Shown in pieces: positions 14,145 through 43,391 of a stretch of DNA of 64,000 nucleotides. Position 1 is the stretch's first letter. Every line of letters begins with the position of its first letter. The notes beneath the pieces were generated by a model. The model worked only from the letters and a program-made list of their open reading frames with translations. It made no database searches and was not told the origin of the DNA. Source of the stretch: Elusimicrobiota bacterium (GTDB lineage Bacteria; Elusimicrobiota; Elusimicrobia; F11); assembly GCA_044221725.1 (NCBI GenBank), contig JBGAON010000003.1:416001-480000 (forward strand), given 5' to 3'. Position numbers and translations under genes: made by a program.

Positions 14145-14786
14145 TCAACGCTCGCCATTGCCTTCCCGCTCATTGGAGCACTCTTTGATGAATTGAATTA
14201 GTTCACGATAATTTTCTTGATCCGCACTCTTCATCGACTTGATGTATCGCTTGCGGACGTCGTCCCCTCGTTCCATGCGTTGAATTTGTGGCCATTGTGG
14301 CAGAGGATTTTTTCTCGAACGGAAAAAGATATCGGTCATTAGTCTGGCATGACGGCCGTTCCCGTTCTTGAAAGGGTGAACCTTCGTCAGTCGATTTTGA
14401 AGACGCGCAGCGATTTCCAAAATCGGCATCGAAGCTTTCGGAGAATTCCAAAACACAAAGTCGCCGCAGAGCACCTTCACCTGTTCGGGCACTTTGTGCC
14501 AGTCGACGCCCATGTTCACGTTTCCCGTGCGATATTTGCCCGCCCAATCCCAAATCTCACCGAACATATCCAAGTGAACACGACGGATAAATTCTTCTGT
14601 AAGCCATGTGCCGTCGGCAGCTTTTCGTCGAGCGCGATGGACGTGCTTCTCATAGGCACGGTCAATTGCTTCTAACTCCGCAGCATCACGAGCGCGTTTA
14701 TCTGCGAGTTGTGGCTGAATAAGGCCGGATTCGTCGTCGCCGGCCGTTGCGCCAGCTGTCTTTGAATCGTCAGTCATTTTTGTCAC
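14145..14786 (-). CDS. Mobile mystery protein B (Fic domain)
   Basis: HPFKNGNGRHARL Fic motif; HLDMFGEIWDWAGKYR; paired with XRE partner. Confidence 0.88.
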   Translation of the reverse strand: MTKMTDDSKTAGATAGDDESGLIQPQLADKRARDAAELEAIDRAYEKHVHRARRKAADGTWLTEEFIRRVHLDMFGEIWDWAGKYRTGNVNMGVDWHKVPEQVKVLCGDFVFWNSPKASMPILEIAARLQNRLTKVHPFKNGNGRHARLMTDIFFRSRKNPLPQWPQIQRMERGDDVRKRYIKSMKSADQENYRELIQFIKECSNEREGNGER

Positions 14787-15237
14787 GCCACAAACGTTCG
14801 CGTTTGTCTTGGATTATCTCGTCCGTTCGTTTCTCTAGGAGACTCTTAAATATCTCGGAATCCGGCGCCTGCTCTTCAAGAGCCATTGTTCCCATGGACT
14901 GTTTGAGTCGTCGTAAGGCCACGGCACGCGCACGATCGCGCAACAAGTCTTCGAGCGGCTTGATTGGGCGTGGCTGTACAACGAGGTCAGACGATAGCGC
15001 CTTGAATACTTTTTTTAGGGTGCTGATTTGCGGATCGATCTTTCCGGCTTCGATACTTGCGATATGCGACTGTGGCATCTTCGCTCGTTTTGCGAGTTCG
15101 GCTTGAGTCATTCGAAGGGAGGTTCGAAGTATGCGAACCCAATCGGAAAAAGACGGGGCCCATGTCGGCTGCTCATTTTGAGTCGCCAAGTGGGAAAGAG
15201 AAAGGTCCTCCACGATGTTTAATTTTTTTCGTCTCAT
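14770..15237 (-). CDS. Mobile mystery protein A (XRE HTH)
   Basis: WVRILRTSLRMTQAELAKR..IEAG HTH; TMALEEQ and RLW C-terminal motifs. Confidence 0.85.
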   Translation of the reverse strand: MRRKKLNIVEDLSLSHLATQNEQPTWAPSFSDWVRILRTSLRMTQAELAKRAKMPQSHIASIEAGKIDPQISTLKKVFKALSSDLVVQPRPIKPLEDLLRDRARAVALRRLKQSMGTMALEEQAPDSEIFKSLLEKRTDEIIQDKRERLWRDKND

Positions 15238-15551: not shown

Positions 15552-15598
15552 TTTCGGAGCGGCGGGAATTGAACCCGCGACCTCACCCACCCCAAGGG
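15552..15598 (-). repeat. att site: displaced 3' part of tRNA-Pro(GGG)
   Basis: 47-bp direct repeat of 27354-27400 with 2 mismatches (15563/27365, 15577/27379). Confidence 0.95.
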
Positions 15599-15643
15599 CG
15601 ATAGAGGTGCTTCCGACGAGTTGTGATTCAAGCATTTTCATTC

Positions 15644-15665
15644 TACCGGTTCCATATTGGTTCCA
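15644..15665. repeat. Tandem 11-bp repeat pair, putative integrase arm-type sites
   Basis: TACCGGTTCCA TATTGGTTCCA then GT; 24/28 identical to 27239-27266. Confidence 0.7.
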
Positions 15666-15680
15666 GTAATGTTCAAAAAA

Positions 15681-17828
15681 TCAGTCTAAAAACGTCAGCT
15701 GTTTTGACGTGCTAATGACCTTTGGAAGTCTCCACCTTGAACACATTCGACATCCAGCCTTGGCCCTATTGAGTACGGTGGCTTCCCACTCATGTCCATT
15801 CTTACATTGCCACCAAACTTTATTACTGGAATATGGCTTTACATCCCCGGGTGTTAGTTTCCCATTCATTGTTGGATGCCACTCTTGGGCAAGATGTGGT
15901 TTCTTGGCGGCTAATGATGTCTCGCTGGTAGCACGTCGCCCTGAACAAAACGGGCAACCAGTACCGTTAAACCTATCAACAACCTTTGCGTTCCACTCAT
16001 GGCCCTTATTGCATTGCCACCAAACTCTTCTATGCGATCCGGCGAGTAAGTTTTCAGGAGTTAAGTCGCCATTTATCGTTAGATGCAACTCTTTTGCTAA
16101 TTTTGGATTCTTAATGGCCAAGCAATTATCCGCACAAACTTTCTTGTTACCGCAATACGGACATCCCCTCCCTGCTGATCTATTGCCTATTGATGAGACC
16201 CATTCATGGCCTTTTTGGCATTGCCACCAAACTTTTTTATTGGATCGGAACGTCACATCGCCAGAGGTTAGCGTACCGTTTTTAGATGGATGCCACTCTT
16301 GAGCTAACAGAGGTTTTTTAGTTGCAAGCGATGTCTCTTTTGTTGCTCTCAACCCCGAACAATATGGACAATTATGACCCGCTGACCTATTGTTGGATGC
16401 GGCTTCCCACTCATGTCCCTTCTCACACATCCACCAAACTTTTTTATTTGAAAAAGGTACGACGTCGTGGGCCGTCAGTACTCCATTCCTTGTTGGATGC
16501 CACTCGTTCGCTAATTTTGGATTGATTGCGGCTAAGCTGTTATCGCCGCAAACTTTCTTATTGCCACAATACGGACATTTCGTTTTACTCGCCGTCCTAT
16601 CACTGATTTTTGCTTCCCACTCATGTCCCTTTTGGCATTGCCACCATACCCGCGAATTTGACATTGGAGTTACGTCACTTGGTGTTAGCTTGCCGTTTTT
16701 GGACGAATGCCACTCTCGGGCGAGTTTGGTATTTAGATCGGCCACAGAAGTACCGGGGAAAGGCGAAGGAAGCATGTCTAACAAGTTTTTGAATGCTTCA
16801 TCATTCGCTAACCCAGATTTTTTCAAGTACGCATCTACTCTTAATTGATCGGGTTCGGAGAGAGTGCAAATCTCTTTAATGCCTTTAAGCAGAGAATCTA
16901 TCAACGGTTTTTCTTTCTTCTTTGTGAAATCGAAGGTAACATCATAGTTGGAGATTGTGTCTAATCCTTTTTCTCGCACTCGAATAAGTTTTACACCCTT
17001 TTTTTCAAGGAATAGATTTTTGGCGTGATCCTTCTTGTGCTTATCTTTATGCCAATACACCCCGTCATATTCCAATCCCACCATTAGCGAAGGTATGTAA
17101 ATATCACACTCAACTTTATTGATTTTTTCTCTATGTCTGGTGTCAGGAAAAATATGGCTAAGCTCCGTGTAAATTCTTAACTCCATTAGTGATGTCTTAT
17201 TGGTACAGAAGGAACAACCTGTTCCGCGTCCCGATCTGCTACATACACTTGCTATGTATTCGTGGCCTTTCTTGCATATCCACCATATTTTCCTACCAGA
17301 GGCCGATGTCGCATCATTAGGTGTCAAAATTCCGTTTTTGGATGGATGCCATTCCTTCGCTAATTTCGGGTGCTTATTGGCCAAGCAATTATCCACACAA
17401 ACTTTTTTACTGGCACAAAAGGGACAGCCAATTCCATTTGATCTACTTTTAACAATCGCTTCCCAAGCATGACCTTTATGACATAGCCACCAAATCATTT
17501 TCTTTGATCCAGTCGTTATATGGTCAGGCGTCAAGAATTCGTTCTTAGTGGGATGCCATTCTTTGGACAAGGTAGGATTGAGTGTGGCCAAAGAGTTACC
17601 TTCATACACTTTCTGATTTACACAATAGGGACAGCCCCGGCCATGCTGACTTCTATTGCTAATAATACTCTCCCACTCATGCCCTTTTTTGCAATGCCAC
17701 CAAACCCGTTTATGTGACATTGGGCCGACATCCGTAGGCGACAAGGTGCCATTTTTGGATGGATGCCATTCTTGGGATAGCAAGGGGTGAACTACGAATA
17801 AATTATGCTGACTCGTGACTTTGGACAT
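15681..17828 (-). CDS. Zinc-ribbon repeat protein (8 DUF4379-like repeats) with a central PD-(D/E)XK/Vsr-like endonuclease domain
   Basis: Eight EWHPxKN..WWxCxKGHEW..CPxC repeats (3+5) around TSLMELRIY..ECDIYIP..GLEYDGVYWH..LIRVRE. Confidence 0.85.
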   Translation of the reverse strand: MSKVTSQHNLFVVHPLLSQEWHPSKNGTLSPTDVGPMSHKRVWWHCKKGHEWESIISNRSQHGRGCPYCVNQKVYEGNSLATLNPTLSKEWHPTKNEFLTPDHITTGSKKMIWWLCHKGHAWEAIVKSRSNGIGCPFCASKKVCVDNCLANKHPKLAKEWHPSKNGILTPNDATSASGRKIWWICKKGHEYIASVCSRSGRGTGCSFCTNKTSLMELRIYTELSHIFPDTRHREKINKVECDIYIPSLMVGLEYDGVYWHKDKHKKDHAKNLFLEKKGVKLIRVREKGLDTISNYDVTFDFTKKKEKPLIDSLLKGIKEICTLSEPDQLRVDAYLKKSGLANDEAFKNLLDMLPSPFPGTSVADLNTKLAREWHSSKNGKLTPSDVTPMSNSRVWWQCQKGHEWEAKISDRTASKTKCPYCGNKKVCGDNSLAAINPKLANEWHPTRNGVLTAHDVVPFSNKKVWWMCEKGHEWEAASNNRSAGHNCPYCSGLRATKETSLATKKPLLAQEWHPSKNGTLTSGDVTFRSNKKVWWQCQKGHEWVSSIGNRSAGRGCPYCGNKKVCADNCLAIKNPKLAKELHLTINGDLTPENLLAGSHRRVWWQCNKGHEWNAKVVDRFNGTGCPFCSGRRATSETSLAAKKPHLAQEWHPTMNGKLTPGDVKPYSSNKVWWQCKNGHEWEATVLNRAKAGCRMCSRWRLPKVISTSKQLTFLD

Positions 17829-17839
17829 AAAAAATTTAC

Positions 17840-17861
17840 CACCGGTTCTATATCGGTATTA
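17840..17861. repeat. Internal degenerate copy of the 11-bp arm-type repeat pair
   Basis: CACCGGTTCTA TATCGGTATTA then GTGA, in the 44-bp gap between the two cargo genes. Confidence 0.6.
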
Positions 17862-17872
17862 GTGATTTGGGC

Positions 17873-18964
17873 TTATTTCCCTCTTTCGAGATCAATTTGG
17901 AACTGAATAGCTTCATCAATTCGGTTTTCAGCGTGGGAGGCTAAGATTTCAATTTCGATCAACTTTTTATCTATTTCTAAATACTGATTTATTGCGGAAT
18001 CCAGTGTTGTTGCTTTCTCAAGCAGCTGCATTTCGTTTTTGACTGACGAGAGCATCTCAGAATTATTTTTTGGTTTAAATGATTTATAGGCCTTTTCAAT
18101 CATATTTGTAACCCGTTGTTCAACAAGTCGATATTCTTCGCGCTCTGGTTTGATACCCTCAACTTGGCCGGTTATTCGATAGTTCATTTGTTTTAGATCA
18201 TTTGACAAATCATCTTCGATACCTTGAAGCTCAAAAGCGGCTTTTTTGAAAAGCTCGTCAAGTTCTTGTTCTGTTTTGCAGAAGAGCGAGTTCTCCTTCA
18301 TAAATTCAAATTTTGATATTCGATCCTTAATATCTGCTACAAAAGAGCGCCGCATTTTATCGGTGTCTGCTTCGATACATTTCTCAAAAAATTGGGCAGC
18401 TTCTCTTGCGGCCTTCCCATAATCAATAAAGTTATTTGTCTTAACGAATTTACTTATTGATTTTGATTGGTCTACTGAAATGCCCTCCATGCTGACTTTC
18501 ATTCCTGATCCGCCATTACCAGAAGTGTTTTCAAATAAACGAAGCGTCGAGAGGAAAGCAATACGTGCAATCGTCGAAATGACATTCTGGTTGTGAGTGT
18601 CTCGATGGTATGCTGCATTTCGATAGAAGTTTAAGACTTTAAAAATAATTGCATCTGATTGGGTAAGCAAGCCACTTTTGGACAAACAAAAATCGACTTT
18701 TTCATCAAAAAATCGAAAAACCTTTTGTCGATATTGAGATGAGTATTTTGGAACGGATACTCGTGAAAAATAAATATCTTGATCAAAACTTGAGATAGCT
18801 TCGATAAACATTAAGCCTTCAGCCAGGCTGTGGATCAAAATAATAGCCATGCGAGACTTTTCATGATCATCGGCTTGTATGAGATTACTTACAACATCAA
18901 AATGATCAAGCGATGCTTTGAATCGCTCGAACGTTGGCCTAAAGAGCAAAGCATGTCGTTTCAT
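17873..18964 (-). CDS. Hypothetical protein with a putative HEPN RNase domain
   Basis: RNAAYH (Rx4H, 18605-18622) preceded by helix RMAIILIHSLAE, typical of HEPN domains; helical C-terminus. Confidence 0.6.
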   Translation of the reverse strand: MKRHALLFRPTFERFKASLDHFDVVSNLIQADDHEKSRMAIILIHSLAEGLMFIEAISSFDQDIYFSRVSVPKYSSQYRQKVFRFFDEKVDFCLSKSGLLTQSDAIIFKVLNFYRNAAYHRDTHNQNVISTIARIAFLSTLRLFENTSGNGGSGMKVSMEGISVDQSKSISKFVKTNNFIDYGKAAREAAQFFEKCIEADTDKMRRSFVADIKDRISKFEFMKENSLFCKTEQELDELFKKAAFELQGIEDDLSNDLKQMNYRITGQVEGIKPEREEYRLVEQRVTNMIEKAYKSFKPKNNSEMLSSVKNEMQLLEKATTLDSAINQYLEIDKKLIEIEILASHAENRIDEAIQFQIDLERGK

Positions 18965-18967
18965 GTT

Positions 18968-20020
18968 TCAATTATTTGAAAAAACCAAATTTGTATCCGT
19001 GGCATTCTTAAGATTGAATTTTTCTTGGCTGTCAGAAAAATTGATCATATTTGCGGCTATTTTTTTGAAATTCGGTGCCAGGTGTGAATATCTTGCTGTC
19101 ATCTTTATATCCGAATGGCCCATGAGTTTCATCAACGTAAATTGATCGACGCCTTTCATAGTCATATGGCTGGCATAGGAATGACGGAGTGTGTGGATAT
19201 CTGCTTCATTGATTCCAGATTTTTGAATTGCCGATGACCATTCCCGTTTCAGGTTCGTGGTGTCCAGAACTCTTCCGGTTGTTCCTTTAACTGACAATCG
19301 TTGAAGTAGATTCAAAACGGATTCGTTCATCGGAACCTCATAGGATTTGCCTGATTTTGTTTTCAACACATGGATTACCCCAGCCTTCGTATCAATGTCA
19401 TCCCATTGAAGGCCGATGAGGTTGGCTTTCCTCATGCCGGTATTGACGGCCATTACAATGAAATCACGAAGTCGTGGGGTCGAACAATCCATCAATGCAT
19501 AAATTTCGCTTTCGGTGAGGTAGCGCGTTCGCTGATTATCTTCTCGGAGTTTTTTTATTCGGCTGGTAGGATTGTCACGAATTTTCCCATCTACAACCGC
19601 CTGATTAAAAATGCTTCGCAGGCACGTTAAGGCGCGGTTGATGGTAGATTTTTTCTTGCCCGCGTTGATCATTTCCGATTTCCACTCTTCGATGTCTCTT
19701 TGCTTGATATAGCAGAGCGGTTTTCCGGTGAAATAACGTTTGAAATCTTTGATTCGATAAAACTCGTTTAGCCTGGGGTTGACCATGTCAACCGACGCAT
19801 AAAGGCGGTAATACTCGTCAGCATAGGTATCGAAAGGGGTTCGGTCGTTTTTTTGAAGCGGCAGGAATCCACCACTATTAAATTTGGCTTTTTCTTGGAT
19901 TTCAAAATTCTCGGCTTCTGCGTACGTTATGAATTTTTTCTTTACGCGTCGGCTTCCTAAATAAAAGTTGGCTTCCCACCTCTCGGCTTTTCGTTCACCC
20001 CGTTTAATTTTTTTGATCAT
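18968..20020 (-). CDS. int: Tyrosine recombinase/integrase
   Basis: TGMR, KTKSG, HTLRH, MGHSD, RYSH: complete catalytic R-K-H-R-H-Y set. Confidence 0.96.
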   Translation of the reverse strand: MIKKIKRGERKAERWEANFYLGSRRVKKKFITYAEAENFEIQEKAKFNSGGFLPLQKNDRTPFDTYADEYYRLYASVDMVNPRLNEFYRIKDFKRYFTGKPLCYIKQRDIEEWKSEMINAGKKKSTINRALTCLRSIFNQAVVDGKIRDNPTSRIKKLREDNQRTRYLTESEIYALMDCSTPRLRDFIVMAVNTGMRKANLIGLQWDDIDTKAGVIHVLKTKSGKSYEVPMNESVLNLLQRLSVKGTTGRVLDTTNLKREWSSAIQKSGINEADIHTLRHSYASHMTMKGVDQFTLMKLMGHSDIKMTARYSHLAPNFKKIAANMINFSDSQEKFNLKNATDTNLVFSNN

Positions 20021-20026
20021 GCGGCA

Positions 20027-20263
20027 TCATCTCCATTCGTCTCCATTTCTATTTTGGTACGACCAAGGTGATTTTACGGCTTCATCAACCGATGCGGCAA
20101 TTTTTTTATCAACCCACTTGTCTAACTCGATGCGGTCAAAACGAACGGCCCTGCCGACTTTGACAGTTGGAATCGTTCCTCTTCTGGCCAATTCGTAAAT
20201 GGTTTCCTCATGTAAATTCAGGTATTTAGCCGCCTCCTCGGCTTTTAGTAAACGGGGTTCCAT
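20027..20263 (-). CDS. Excisionase-like HTH protein (HTH_17)
   Basis: LLKAEEAAKYLNLHEETIYELARRGTIPTVKVGRAVRF; ATG at 20263; adjacent to int. Confidence 0.88.
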   Translation of the reverse strand: MEPRLLKAEEAAKYLNLHEETIYELARRGTIPTVKVGRAVRFDRIELDKWVDKKIAASVDEAVKSPWSYQNRNGDEWR

Positions 20264-20306: not shown

Positions 20307-20960
20307 TCATCGGGCCAACCGCCGAACTGCTTCAATAAATCCCAACCCCTCGACATCTGACATCCAACGGATTGCATCGCAATGTGCGCCACAAGAAAAA
20401 CAAAATCCAAATCCGTTCTTGATCCACATCGAGGGGCGTTGGTCTGGATGAAACGGGCATACAATCCGGCCAGTCTTGTCTGGTTCAACCAAAGTAGCAA
20501 GGTCAACAGTGCGGGCACGTTCAATATCGCTGTCGTTGATTCGTCCTGTTGTTTCTGTTTTTGGAAAGGTGAGGAGAATATTGCCGCGATATTTTTTTCT
20601 CAATTTTTCCAACTGATCAACGTTGGAAAGAGTGAGAGATACGAACCTGTCCGCATACGGTTCATCTCTCTCATAGCTTTCGTTATAGGAGTTGTAGGCC
20701 TCGGCAATGCGCTTGGATAGGATAGAAACGCGCTCTTCGTCGCTATCGGCGAAAGCGATTTCGTGGCCGCCTTGAAGTTTAAGAGTGGCTTCCCATTTTT
20801 TGATTTCGGAGTCAGGGTCATAGTCCATAAGTTCGTTGTCGAGCTTTTCCAAGTATTCGACTTCGTCAGGAGCAAAACCGGCTTCTATTCAATCGCGGAG
20901 CCAGCCCGTTTTTTTGCGAATGAACATATAGAAGTCAAGGAAGGCCCGTTCGTCGATCAC
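20307..20960 (-). pseudogene. CHC2 zinc-finger (primase zinc-binding-like) protein with an in-frame TGA at 20889-20891
   Basis: GTG at 20960 overlaps the helicase stop; frame reads IDERAFLDFYMFIRKKTGWLRD*IEAGFAPDEVEYLEK..CPFHPDQRPS..FCFSC. Confidence 0.65.
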
Positions 20961-21850
20961 AAAAAAGCCTCTTCGAGCCAATGGCCTTGTTTTTGGTAGG
21001 CGATTTTCCTTCGGTAGACTCCGGAGCGTCTCGCCTTTTCGATTTTGACGAAAGCGCGACCTTCGGTGTAGGAACGTTCGTAGCCTTTGATGTCGGCGTT
21101 AGCTTTGAGGACAGAGGGTAACGGATCGGGTTCTCTGTAAACGACGAACACCATGTCGGCTTCTTGAGCGATGAAGGAGGAGTCGCGAATGTTTTCCAAG
21201 GAGGGCTCGCCTTCTTTTTTCTGGCCTTGGTGAGCGAGGATAAAGACCAAGAGGTTCATATCGACCGCGATTTCTCGTTTGAATTTGCGCATGACCGCGC
21301 CGATGTTTAAGGACATGTTATGCTGGGTCTGCATATCGACCAGGAAGTGAAGGTGGTCGACAATGACCGCCGAGATATTGTGCTTGAGCTTGGCTTCCAG
21401 GCAGCGGGCCTTGATCCACTCGAACTGCCCAGCGACAAGGATATAAGGCACAAAGAGGCCGAGCCGATCTTTGTCTTGGGCGGTGACATATTTGTCGATC
21501 ATTTTGAGCGTAGGGACTTCGTAAGAAAACCAGGCGATGGCTTGTTTCTGGTGGCGCATGAGGCGCATGCCGATGGTGTCTGCGCAAAGCGTCTTGCCGT
21601 TGCCGGTGGGGCCGGTGATGACGACCACCTCACCTGTTTGAAAGCCTTCTACCAGAGCGTCGAGTTGAGTGAGGCCGGTGTGGAAGGTTTTGATTTTTTC
21701 GTCTTGTTTGAAGTGGTCTTGGTGATAGTCCAAAAAGTGAACCATCCGGTCAGAGCCAGCGTAGTTAGTCGCTTTGGCCTCTTCTTCGGCTCGCCTCTTC
21801 CCGTTTAGTTCTTCTTGGATTTGTTCGCTTCCTGCGCCGTGCGTTTCCAT
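20957..21850 (-). CDS. DnaB-like (SF4) helicase, RecA-fold domain only
   Basis: TGLTQLD, GPTGNGKT Walker A, VIVDHLH Walker B, IRDSSFIAQEADMV, KARR. Confidence 0.9.
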   Translation of the reverse strand: METHGAGSEQIQEELNGKRRAEEEAKATNYAGSDRMVHFLDYHQDHFKQDEKIKTFHTGLTQLDALVEGFQTGEVVVITGPTGNGKTLCADTIGMRLMRHQKQAIAWFSYEVPTLKMIDKYVTAQDKDRLGLFVPYILVAGQFEWIKARCLEAKLKHNISAVIVDHLHFLVDMQTQHNMSLNIGAVMRKFKREIAVDMNLLVFILAHQGQKKEGEPSLENIRDSSFIAQEADMVFVVYREPDPLPSVLKANADIKGYERSYTEGRAFVKIEKARRSGVYRRKIAYQKQGHWLEEAFL

Positions 21851-22527
21851 GAATCCTCCTCCTGTTCCGTGGGTTGCTTTGACATCTCATCATTCCAGCG
21901 TTCCTGGTTGAGCCAAGTGGCAGGGTTGGGTATGAACTGACCATCATCTTTTTTCCATTGGATAGATTGGCTTTGGATGCGAATGGCTTCCAAGATGATT
22001 TGCAGGAGAGTTCCATCCGGCTTGAGCTTATCCCAGGATTTTTTTGCCAATTTCTTGCCAGATTTTTTTGGATAGGAGTTCCAAAATAACAAGAATTCTT
22101 TTTCTGCTTGGATGGGATCGGTTTTGATCGGTTTGGATGGGTTCGGTTTGGTTCCATCCGTTTTACATGTGTCTGACACTAAACTTTCATCTGTATTTTT
22201 TCGTTTCCTGTTTTTATTGTATTTGCGTTGGTAAATAAGATAGCTGGCGTATTCTTTCCAATCATGGACTATATACTCATCGAGCCATCCAGATTCTTGA
22301 AGAGCTTTAATCAACGCTTGGGGGGCACCAGCCCATTTGGCTCCCTTGGCGATTGCGGCGTCACCAAATTTTTTCAAATCCCCATCTTGCCAAGCGTATT
22401 TCAGGGTAAAGTGCCAAAGGCAATGGAGGTGCCCGACGGCCTCAATTTGGCTGATTCCCAAACTATCCATGAGCTTGAATAGCTTCGGGTGTTCTGACAT
22501 TTCGTCGTGTGATTCAATCCATGCCAT
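21805..22527 (-). CDS. Phage-type replication initiator protein
   Basis: N-terminal MAWIESH..HPK..AVGHLHCLW..IVHDWKEY, Pro/Lys-rich linker, C-terminal FLLFWNSYPKKSGKK..FIPNPATWLNQERW. Confidence 0.8.
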   Translation of the reverse strand: MAWIESHDEMSEHPKLFKLMDSLGISQIEAVGHLHCLWHFTLKYAWQDGDLKKFGDAAIAKGAKWAGAPQALIKALQESGWLDEYIVHDWKEYASYLIYQRKYNKNRKRKNTDESLVSDTCKTDGTKPNPSKPIKTDPIQAEKEFLLFWNSYPKKSGKKLAKKSWDKLKPDGTLLQIILEAIRIQSQSIQWKKDDGQFIPNPATWLNQERWNDEMSKQPTEQEEDSWKRTAQEANKSKKN

Positions 22528-22629
22528 TGGAGTGATCTCGATAGCTCTGCAGAATCTGGTATACGCGGGAGTTTGATGGTGGTGGAATGTGGCCATTTTC
22601 CCTTGTGGACGGTTTTATGGTGGCCGCAC

Positions 22630-24475: not shown

Positions 24476-25138
24476 TTAAATCGCCACCTTGTTACGCATT
24501 GTGTTCTCCAATGAAATTCTTGTCGCTTTTGGCTGGGGATTTTTCGCCACCCCCAGAAGATTTCTTACGGTGTCCTTTGAAATACCCAGCATTCGGCCAA
24601 TAGCGCGGTGGCTTTGCCCGTCAGAAATCAATTTTACGATCTTTTCTCGATCCACGGGCAGTTTGGGGCGACCAAGCACTTTTCCGGCCTTCCTGGCCTT
24701 GTTTAAGCCCAATAGAACCCGTTCTCGTATCAACTCACGTTCAAATTCAGCAAGCGACGCAAAAATTCCAAACATGAGCCGGCCGTTTGCGGTGGTTGTA
24801 TCCACGCCCTCTCGCAACGAGATGAATGCCACATTCCAAGTGTGAAATTTGTCCAGTGCCTCCACCAGTTGGCGCATAGAACGGGCGAACCGTGAAAAAT
24901 CCCAAACCAATACGCCATCAATTTTTCTTTTGCGGGCGGCATCCAGCAAAGCATTTAGTGCTGGACGCTTGTTCTCATCCAACGATCCGCTCAATCCTTT
25001 ATCCACAAATTCTATTGCCTGCCACGCCCGTGCCTCACTGAAACGCCGTAATTCAATCAACTGGTTTTCACAATCTTGTTGATTGGTACTGACGCGTGCG
25101 TAAATACCAACTTTCCTCATCTCCATTTTAATTTCCAT
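24476..25138 (-). CDS. Serine recombinase (resolvase/invertase)
   Basis: IYARVST catalytic Ser, RPALNALL, SRFARS, AEFERELIRER, C-terminal HTH. Confidence 0.93.
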   Translation of the reverse strand: MEIKMEMRKVGIYARVSTNQQDCENQLIELRRFSEARAWQAIEFVDKGLSGSLDENKRPALNALLDAARKRKIDGVLVWDFSRFARSMRQLVEALDKFHTWNVAFISLREGVDTTTANGRLMFGIFASLAEFERELIRERVLLGLNKARKAGKVLGRPKLPVDREKIVKLISDGQSHRAIGRMLGISKDTVRNLLGVAKNPQPKATRISLENTMRNKVAI

Positions 25139-27242: not shown

Positions 27243-27264
27243 TATCGGTACCATATCGGTACCA
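27243..27264. repeat. Perfect tandem 11-bp repeat pair, putative integrase arm-type sites
   Basis: TATCGGTACCA x2 then GTGA, about 90 bp inside the tRNA-side att. Confidence 0.72.
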
Positions 27265-27355
27265 GTGACCGGCTGGAAGTGACTGTCAGGGACTGTCTCG
27301 AAACGGCCTTTTTCTTGAAATTCCTACTTAAAACGAATCTATTGCTTAAAAAATT

Positions 27356-27427
27356 TCGGAGCGGTGGGAATTGAACCCACGACCTCACCCACCCCAAGGG
27401 TGCGCGCTACCACTACGCTACGCTCCG
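27356..27427 (-). tRNA. tRNA-Pro(GGG), CCA not encoded
   Basis: CGGAGCG acceptor stem, anticodon arm CACCC-TTGGGGT-GGGTG, T arm GTGGG-TTCAATT-CCCAC. Confidence 0.96.
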
Positions 27428-27568
27428 ATCTTCGCTCCTCGCATGAGACAGACGCGAACGGAGCTACGAACGTGCAGGATTGTACGATTCTCCTGAGCAT
27501 CATTCCAGTTTCAAAAGAACCTCCGCAACGCGTTCGTGGAAGAAACAGAGGCGAAACTGACAACAAAT

Positions 27569-42798: not shown

Positions 42799-43391
42799 GA
42801 GAATTTCGCCTTTGGCTCCTCGCCTTTTGCGAGCCGTTTCATGTTGGGAATGTGTTTAACAAGAATCATGAGCGCGGCCACAATACCAAGAATTCTTAAA
42901 GTGGGTGGTGTGTTGGTCAAAAACATACTTACCAATAGTACGAGCGCACCGGCCATGGATCCCACCGAAACGTGTCGCGTGGACAGAAAAAAAATCAGAA
43001 ACGTCACCACAGCCAAGGTGGCCTGCAGCGGAACGAGAGCGAGAAACACGCCGGCCGAGGTCGCAACGCCCTTTCCTCCCGATCCCATCAGAAAAATGCT
43101 CCAGTTGTGTCCGACAATCGCCGCGAGCCCGCACGCGACCGCAAATCCGACGTGGTTCGGAAAAAAATGTCGCACGAGAACGACGGGCAAAACACCTTTC
43201 AACGCGTCGAGCGTCAACGTCGCGATTCCGGGCTTCTTCCCGAGAACACGCCACACGTTTGTTGCACCGGTGTTTTTCGAACCGTGTTCCCGTATGTTGA
43301 CGTGATAGAAAACACGCGCAATGATCACGCCGAACGGAATGGCCCCGATCAAATAGGAAATTGCCACGACCAAGTTTATTGACGGTGCCAT
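42795..43391 (-). CDS. plsY: Glycerol-3-phosphate acyltransferase
   Basis: YLIGAIPFG, GSKNTGATN, DALKG, GGKGVAT, KHIPNMKRL. Confidence 0.95.
   Translation of the reverse strand: MAPSINLVVAISYLIGAIPFGVIIARVFYHVNIREHGSKNTGATNVWRVLGKKPGIATLTLDALKGVLPVVLVRHFFPNHVGFAVACGLAAIVGHNWSIFLMGSGGKGVATSAGVFLALVPLQATLAVVTFLIFFLSTRHVSVGSMAGALVLLVSMFLTNTPPTLRILGIVAALMILVKHIPNMKRLAKGEEPKAKFS

Follow-up and report, generated by a model that had tools for sequence, protein, structure and literature searches.

Do the arm-type repeats in the right end of an integrated element of an Elusimicrobiota bacterium record the stepwise, integron-like capture of single genes, or are they traces of a known process? The element lies in a 64,000-nucleotide stretch of contig JBGAON010000003.1 that was analysed as a whole (the window), is 11.8 kb long and satellite-like, has tRNA-Pro(GGG) as its target, and carries genes for a tyrosine integrase, an excisionase-like and a primase-like protein, DnaB and a resolvase (Table 1). 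It is bounded by the intact tRNA gene at one end and at the other by a duplicate of the tRNA 3' part (95.7% identity over 47 nt), which was also recovered as a repeat, and direct arm pairs lie inside both ends. The integrase matches PF00589 (E 1e-31), the residues R-H-R-H-Y are present in the alignment of its homologues, its nearest named relatives are from Elusimicrobiota, and its stop codon lies 3 nt ahead of cargo 1. Several ORFs between 22630 and 25869 were without a Pfam match. The original prediction described four copies of a repeat, two of them internal and each ahead of a cargo gene, with decay increasing away from att, and explained them by the insertion of cargo genes one at a time.

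Table 1. Features of the element in window coordinates, from the target tRNA gene to the distal att site.
Feature	Positions	Strand	Basis or remark
Intact tRNA-Pro(GGG), integration target	27355..27428	-	ARAGORN
Terminal arm-type pair, tRNA side (attL), perfect 11-mer tandem	27243..27264	-	
Serine resolvase	24476..25138	-	PF00239
Replication module	20307..22596	-	CHC2 zinc-finger primase-like (PF01807), DnaB-like helicase (PF03796), 263-aa ORF (possible initiator)
Excisionase/AlpA-like HTH_17 gene	20027..20263	-	PF12728; start taken from sequence
Tyrosine integrase, 350 aa	18968..20020	-	PF00589 and homologues
Proposed fourth arm copy, rejected	18977..18998	-	Within the C-terminal codons of the integrase, overlapping in part with the conserved F/Y-S-x-N end
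Cargo 1, 363 aa	17873..18964	-	
Decayed, stranded arm pair lacking both spacer and core	17840..17865	-	23.3 bits
Cargo 2, 715 aa	15681..17828	-	PF14311
Terminal arm-type pair at attR, two 11-mers	15644..15665	-	2/22 differences from the L070 pair
Spacer between arm pair and core	15599..15643	-	IHF-like site near 15626-15638
Distal att (attR), duplicate of the tRNA-Pro(GGG) 3' part from the anticodon loop on	15552..15598	-	

All four repeat strings were located, at 27243, 15644, 17840 and 18977. The perfect 11-mer pair at 27243 lies 90 nt from the 3' end of tRNA-Pro, while the pair at 15644, with 4 differences from it in 22 nt, lies 45 nt from the att duplicate. These two pairs are the terminal arm-type repeats of the element, as had been proposed, being located inside both ends and conserved in a relative (L070), whose attR block is 85% identical to that of the element over 122 nt; they are likely to be binding sites of the integrase. 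The IHF-like site in the spacer is a putative one; the pattern, with 2 mismatches allowed, matches both att ends but is not discriminating, as it also occurs near 17840 and 18977. By eye, the spacers of two further relatives (L164 and L328) resemble the attR spacer of the element.

The two internal copies proved to be of very different quality. When a position weight matrix (PWM) built from the two terminal pairs and a 4-nt tail was scored over 5,647,716 genome positions, the copy at 17840 reached 23.3 bits, a significant score attained by three positions including itself; the only sites that outscore it are the two training sites, and it is thus the best non-training site. Scored by the pair alone, six genome positions are as high, and by mismatch the copy ranks third among about 128,000 window positions. 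It departs from a degenerate arm consensus at 4 of 22 positions, a level reached by 1 of 11,508 element positions; all four departures are transitions, and three of them replace G residues that are invariant in six terminal monomers. The copy shares its strand with the two terminal pairs and takes up most of the 44 nt that separate the two unrelated cargo genes, 11 nt after the stop codon of cargo 1 and 11 nt ahead of the ATG of cargo 2. Its likeness to attR ends after 26 nt, and neither a tRNA remnant nor a core was found near it. The idea of a stranded old arm is therefore borne out for this pair, which stands alone without spacer or tRNA core, at the boundary across which the att-proximal gene most likely joined the element.

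In contrast, the copy at 18977 scored -3.6 bits, as good as 15,911 genome positions (57,199 for the pair alone), and took PWM rank 90 of 23,452 within the element. Its 10 mismatches to the 22-nt consensus are equalled or bettered at 320 of 11,508 element positions, and among the window ORFs of at least 150 aa, the two cargo genes included, 10 of 64 reach its level 10-13 nt ahead of the first Met. In the same register the tails of five homologous integrases, including that of L070 with its near-identical arms, scored between -20 and -47. Given the negative log-odds, the background-level mismatch count and the lack of a counterpart in all five tails, we rejected this string as an arm relic; it is a chance likeness in the integrase tail. 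Although the spacing of the two internal strings to the cargo ATGs had been described correctly (gaps of 11 and 12 nt), a decay gradient cannot be drawn from just one real internal copy, and since no significant arm precedes cargo 1, the supposed ladder has a single rung.

These results make it highly improbable that there is an integron-like slot flanked by the core and the right arm, into which the integrase inserts single genes, with a new arm copy arising at each event and 17840 and 18977 left as rungs. Such a slot would fit the genuine internal arm found at one gene boundary, as well as the varying cargo behind close integrase homologues, where the distance from the integrase stop to an unrelated next gene is 2 nt in L070, 3 nt in the studied element and 8 nt in L165. 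An arm relic in the integrase tail is even plausible in principle, because the right arm begins inside the integrase ORF in 32 of 36 distant relatives, and for one fixed position the nominal p value of 18977 is about 0.003-0.03. However, apart from the negative score of that string, the arm pair of L164 lies after the homologous F-S-x-N stop and not before it. L070, which combines a 74-76% identical integrase and a near-identical attR with one unrelated cargo gene, has no internal arm, and none was found in the six complete relatives with cargo behind the integrase, defined by at least 300 nt between int and core (best matches 3.9-10.4 bits, none at 14 bits). Lambda-type integrases are not known to use an arm pair without a core for strand exchange, and the core-less scar at 17840 is thus not expected to serve as a recombination site.

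Of 146 unique integrase loci of at least 6 kb, 48 had att near the integrase stop and 36 of these a clear arm pair; the extra same-strand arm copies scoring at least 14 bits were five left arms behind a tRNA and two further, unexplained single matches (L093, 14.5 bits; L384, 18.9 bits). The degenerate arm pattern had no match in viral contigs, in which the integrase search returned distant matches only. Contigs from 4 of 14 read runs, three of them non-source runs that cover the element in short pieces, held no attP/attB joint and no joint for excision, for circles or for the skipping or loss of a cargo gene, a weak test of the predicted single-gene circles as assembled contigs drop rare forms.

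The reading that we favour, and consider reasonably probable, is that 17840 is a worn terminal-type arm pair left by the absorption of a neighbouring integrase-less DUF4379 islet, through tandem integration at tRNA-Pro and a subsequent, inferred deletion of the internal core. It is based on att-flanked DUF4379 islets in relatives and on a whole decayed internal att in a second element. In addition, at three positions where 17840 differs from 15644 (15653, 15658 and 15668), the bases of 17840 recur as variants in related attR contigs of run X5. Of 17 loci with DUF4379 homologues in the phylum, 12 adjoin a tRNA gene or a piece of one; against this, none of 12 viral DUF4379 loci is near a tRNA. 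Behind tRNA-Met the homologues form att-flanked single-gene islets in the order tRNA, arm, gene, arm, core; a core duplicate directly follows the gene in L338, L339, L354 and L347 and is degenerate in L340, and no tyrosine integrase was detected in any of these loci. The islets, whose proteins are about 40% identical and whose arms are of other types, all come from a single other family and a single tRNA-Met hotspot and thus amount to about one independent case. At tRNA-Pro no close homologue was detected. In the tRNA-Met element of the same genome, a DUF4379 gene immediately follows the left arm, and a whole decayed internal att (arm, spacer and tRNA copy, about 120 nt alignable) brackets the last module. 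Moreover, stacked modules occur at tRNA-Pro(GGG) in the host family: in G004 a module of 11.9 kb in which no tyrosine integrase was detected, and in G003 and G009 att copies that have a different type of arm.

According to this proposal, the resident islet at tRNA-Pro would have been a single DUF4379 nuclease gene in the arrangement shown in relatives. An incoming element ending in the integrase gene, cargo 1 and the right arm would have entered at the tRNA and displaced the islet away from it, so that right arm, spacer, core, spacer and left arm followed one another at the internal junction. A deletion between the direct arm repeats would then have left one arm pair between the stop codon of cargo 1 and the start of cargo 2 and fused the two units, whereupon the right arm of the islet would have become the working attR while the stranded pair decayed. 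The distal unit (15681-17828) indeed contains the DUF4379 gene only and no integrase, and cargo 2 is likely the captured islet. The deletion is deduced from one case, and the relatives included none in which this cargo 1 runs straight into a core and none that retains the junction undeleted. A simple hybrid of right and left arm is expected to have a right-like first and a left-like second repeat; the few diagnostic bases of 17840 are mixed, the first repeat being more like the left arm of the element itself and the second more like the right arm.

The right-arm-like second repeat (CCGGT, as in the element's own attR and that of L070) would also suit an illegitimate extension of the end without any resident islet, in which DNA with cargo 2 and the right end of another element (arm, spacer, core) replaced the core just behind the old right arm. 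One contig of run X5, in which a related attR runs into DUF4379-like sequence (joint 15705 to 15993, with a 30-nt side), weakly points the same way. We nevertheless regard this possibility as rather unlikely, as it needs a breakpoint that by chance fell no more than about 11 nt from the arm, whereas direct repeats around an internal junction yield that position without extra assumptions, and the C4 element shows tandem accretion at work in this genome. Very doubtful is a maintained integrase-binding site at 17840, an operator or roadblock through which the integrase level would govern how strongly the predicted nuclease of cargo 2 is expressed. Its distance to the ATG and its last bases, a GGTGG string resembling a Shine-Dalgarno sequence, would agree with such a role, and the intergenic gap is too small for a separate promoter; none was called there, promoter and terminator scans being at shuffle level. 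However, 17840 has lost the three invariant G residues, whereas the terminal pairs of the element and L070 differ at only 2 of 22 positions, and L070 lacks the site altogether.

Our literature search found no description of DUF4379 islets or of core-less arm scars; subscription papers outside the search (Pavlovic 2004, Bellanger 2011 and a 2014 review) may describe truncated internal att sites. The process most likely resembles the known tandem accretion of elements with cis-mobilisable ones rather than an integron. Two accounts of streptococcal ICE/IME/CIME tandems describe accretion with decayed units farthest from the target gene (PMC5704250; PMC7563491). Here, too, the integrase-bearing element lies nearest the tRNA and the integrase-less unit farther out, both belonging to one composite with att sites at its outer ends and a relic where the units meet. 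Unlike in those tandems, the relic is without core and spacer, so that a permanent fusion of both units is predicted, and the carrier is satellite-like, without detected conjugation genes, and found in Elusimicrobiota. Because the internal site is arm-only and the distal unit is not flanked by two complete att sites, the latter is classed as a fused derivative rather than an intact CIME. Tandem accretion with gene capture is reportedly also known for elements of the ICESt1/ICESt3 type.

Integron cassette arrays are built from IntI, attI and attC. The element shares with them apparently promoterless genes on one strand in a row beside a tyrosine recombinase gene, but it has neither a site repeated for each gene nor an internal site with a core, its integrase is of the phage type with terminal att sites in a tRNA, and a direct repeat occupies its 44-nt gap. 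The att sites of lambda-type heterobivalent tyrosine integrases combine arm-type and core-type sites, and the element appears similar in its direct 11-mer pairs flanking a tRNA anticodon-loop core, its IHF-like spacer and its excisionase-like gene upstream of int; in contrast to that type, its integrase had no match to an N-terminal arm-binding Pfam domain such as PF14659. By eye, the integrase N-terminus resembles arm-binding domains. With PICI-type phage satellites the element has in common its size of about 12 kb, the core of int, alpA/xis and primase/replication genes together with a helicase gene, and accessory genes at the att end, but no capsid-redirection or terminase gene was identified in it.

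An integron-like mechanism would have meant a new gene-capture machine, whereas the evidence leaves a single scar from a process already known. Nonetheless, arm pairs without a core can indicate where an element once ended, which allows the order in which satellite cargo was assembled to be read where tRNA fragments are gone. In Elusimicrobiota, DUF4379 zinc-finger nuclease genes are often located behind a tRNA gene, in one family in the form of att-flanked islets of a single gene, and this makes them candidates for defence or selfish-nuclease roles. It is conceivable, though unlikely, that satellites of this integrase clade run a capture ratchet, docking by one-gene nuclease islets at tRNAs, deleting the internal att and locking promoterless nuclease genes into the integrase operon one by one, fed by a pool of integrase-less att-flanked DUF4379 cassettes; arm-only scars would then date the captures.

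The cargo had originally been called a defence array, a label founded on motifs only. Cargo 2 has eight DUF4379 treble-clef zinc-finger repeats (PF14311, 8 stretches), which are predicted to surround a DUF559/PD-(D/E)xK-like nuclease domain; Atlas clusters for residues 205-365 are annotated as DUF4379, with DUF559 on 13-22% of members where shown (a lead only). Among the known defence profiles of PADLOC it matched one at just E 0.014 over 56 aa. Cargo 1 matched no Pfam, NCBIfam or PADLOC family and no solved structure, and relatives were found neither in viral contigs and plasmids nor in 300 other genomes of the phylum. Its invariant R-N-x-A-Y-H motif may point to a HEPN-type RNase, and an Atlas match to DUF3644 at 0.85 provides a lead only. 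No scar accounts for its arrival directly behind the integrase stop. Palindromes around the toxin-antitoxin cargo of two relatives (L163 and L166) were considered as arms and are read instead as probable operators.

The locus is most likely explained by a single putative integrase-binding arm stranded in the course of a known accretion process, with no ladder of such arms. The four strings named in the original prediction, which saw in them an integron-like ladder, are all present in the window, and the region that they mark is the right end of an 11.8-kb element of lower GC content. This element encodes a tyrosine integrase, an HTH_17/AlpA excisionase-like protein, a CHC2 zinc-finger protein, a DnaB-like helicase and a resolvase, a layout that we take to be satellite-like, and the named relatives nearest to the integrase by sequence are from Elusimicrobiota. 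The integrase is oriented toward the distal att site, with cargo 1 and cargo 2 lying in between. Since the 15644 and 27243 pairs of tandem 11-mers form direct repeats inside both element ends, and since the block at the distal end (attR) shares 85% identity over 122 nt with its counterpart in L070, a related locus whose integrase is 74-76% identical and targets the same tRNA, we regard these pairs as the terminal arm-type repeats of the element.

Boundaries and cargo genes of the element (window coordinates)
Feature	Coordinates	Length	Identity	Role
Intact tRNA-Pro(GGG)	27355-27428			One element boundary
Copy of tRNA 3' part	15552-15598	47 nt	96%	Other element boundary
Cargo 1	17873-18964			
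Cargo 2	15681-17828			

The copy at 17840, described as a degenerate arm, proved exceptional genome-wide: with a position weight matrix built from the two terminal pairs it scored 23.3 bits, a value found at 3 of 5,647,716 genome positions, two of them the training sites (6 positions when scored with the pair alone), and under a Markov null at most 0.02 sites of this score are expected per element. Relative to the consensus of the six terminal monomers it carries four mismatches, all of them transitions and three at invariant G residues, and three of its differences from 15644 recur in related attR contigs from sequencing run X5. Its resemblance to attR ends after 26 nt, the attR spacer is absent, and no tRNA remnant was found near it; no core match in the whole element exceeds 10 nt, the 10-nt one lying far off. 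With 11 nt separating it from the cargo 1 stop on one side and from the cargo 2 start on the other, this copy is, judged from its sequence, a relic of the arm alone at the seam between two unrelated genes.

The string at 18977, proposed as a very weak further rung, lies in the last integrase codons, and the idea was reasonable because 32 of the 36 relatives that are more distant have arms beginning within the integrase ORF. We nevertheless reject it as an arm relic, given its background-level score, the homologous integrase tails, in which it is unmatched, and the arm position in L164. It scored -3.6 bits (15,911 genome positions are as good) and agrees with the degenerate consensus in 12 of 22 bases, a level that 320 of 11,508 element positions attain, as do 10 of 64 window ORFs at 10-13 nt before the first Met; the nominal p of ~0.003-0.03 for one fixed position leaves the relic reading a slight chance, but this position was picked after the fact. 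The F/Y-S-x-N C-terminus (window 18968-18982) is common to 14 of 23 homologues in integrase alignment A1, and in five homologous tails the corresponding register scored -20 to -47, compared to -6.5 in this element, with top scores anywhere in those tails of -5.6 to -11.5. L164 (54% identity) has an arm pair directly behind the homologous stop codon, followed by the same kind of spacer, which puts the predicted ancestral arm position of this integrase clade behind the stop.

Likewise, the claim of one arm per cargo gene was not borne out, as only one real stranded arm was found. L070 has no internal arm and a single unrelated cargo gene; such genes begin 2, 3 and 8 nt after the F/Y-S-x-N stop in L070, this element and L165, respectively. 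Six complete relatives with 1.3-11 kb between integrase and core contain no internal copy above 10.4 bits, and among 36 loci with the integrase abutting att the extra same-strand copies comprised five left arms and two unexplained single matches. No excision or cargo-skipping joint occurred in contigs from 4 of 14 runs, and contigs drop rare forms. Antitoxin/RES-like gene pairs were seen behind close integrase homologues (L163:3172-3333 and L166:10722-11955), with operator-like rather than arm-like palindromes upstream and, in L166, also downstream. In L255 (2822-3043), between a full integrase and tRNA-Thr, lies an arm pair overlapped by a short ORF that resembles an integrase C-terminus and is possibly a tandem-integration remnant.

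Both cargo genes may encode defence nucleases. The 20 homologues of cargo 1 (47-58% identity) share an invariant R-x4-H motif, a hint of a HEPN RNase, and cargo 1 had no match among the family profiles and solved structures searched. Cargo 2 consists of eight DUF4379 zinc-finger repeats surrounding a predicted nuclease domain, with homologues in 17 of 400 other genomes of the phylum. Of the 17 Elusimicrobiota loci, 12 have a tRNA gene or fragment next to the DUF4379 gene within a cut-off of 900 nt, full tRNAs lying 175-485 nt away, compared to 0 of 12 viral DUF4379 loci in the same test (3 weak viral matches of 15 left out), and one of the 17 yielded a tyrosine integrase. In L338 (L338:9110-11080), L339, L354 and L347 the DUF4379 gene is the sole gene between tRNA-Met and a copy of the tRNA 3' end, with arm repeats on both sides in L338 and L339, and L340 has the same arrangement in degenerate form; these islets, in which no tyrosine integrase was detected, stem from one family and one hotspot and count as about one independent case. 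A second left-arm block follows a spacer module in L338 and recurs in L340 and L354.

Two full tRNA-Met copies enclose a second element of the source genome (G000:C4:26881-44831), which has a 12-mer arm pair at either end and, just behind the left arm, a 1029-aa DUF4379 gene. The internal site of this element at 43113 (19.1 bits; six genome positions as good), the one other clear internal site found, is a whole decayed att of arm, spacer and tRNA copy, alignable over ~120 nt, which sets apart a last module of predicted arsenic-resistance-like genes (read by eye) and is the kind of scar that tandem accretion classically leaves. A third element (G000:C3:719817-728811) at tRNA-Thr(CGT) carries, besides a 3' duplicate near an integrase, a 5' duplicate that lies separately, upstream of the tRNA.

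In earlier reports, an incoming element accretes onto a cis-mobilisable element (CIME) and the composite is excised via the outer att sites (PMC5704250), decay is strongest in the units remotest from the target gene (PMC7563491), and tandem arrays are unstable and yield deletions and hybrids (PMC5812530); our locus appears to work like those composites. An intact CIME, however, has two complete att sites, which this locus does not, suggesting that it is a fused derivative. No description of core-less arm scars was found in the literature searched, a search outside which the primary accretion papers lay.

We consider it fairly probable that an integrase-bearing element inserted at the tRNA, ahead of a DUF4379 islet already resident there, and that the internal core was then deleted between arms. 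The islet would have arrived before the element, whose entry would create an internal junction of two direct arm pairs ~190 nt apart with the core between them; a deletion between these pairs would leave a single arm pair closely flanked by genes, fuse the two units, let the islet's right arm take over as attR and deprive the relic of its function. This capture builds on the observed boundaries, arm identity and core-less relic, on islets of this kind in relatives and on accretion in the source genome. However, the diagnostic bases of 17840 form no clean right/left hybrid, which counts against capture, and no intermediate was found. An illegitimate replacement of the element's end is an unlikely origin of the relic, and its retention as a maintained integrase operator is improbable. 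An integron-like slot is very improbable, as an integron has one site per gene and this locus does not.

At tRNA-Pro(GGG), related genomes hold different modules: an 11.9-kb block with predicted lipid-modification genes and no detected integrase lies between the tRNA and an att site in G004 (L322, G004:C40), and the att copies in G003 and G009 have a different arm type. An HTH and Fic pair (mobile mystery proteins A and B; window 14145-15237) just outside attR is likely an older resident module; since a homologous pair with similar upstream DNA also lies behind a tRNA-Pro att in G005 (L326), the site appears to be stacked deeper still. In L330 (G006:C49), two head-to-head tRNA-Pro copies are flanked on either side by ~7.5 kb that mirror each other, which probably reflects an artefact of assembly. 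The tRNA-Pro(GGG) gene is also targeted by a second element class (L322, L333, L334, L332), in which the tRNA 5' half is duplicated and the integrase ends at the tRNA 5' end.
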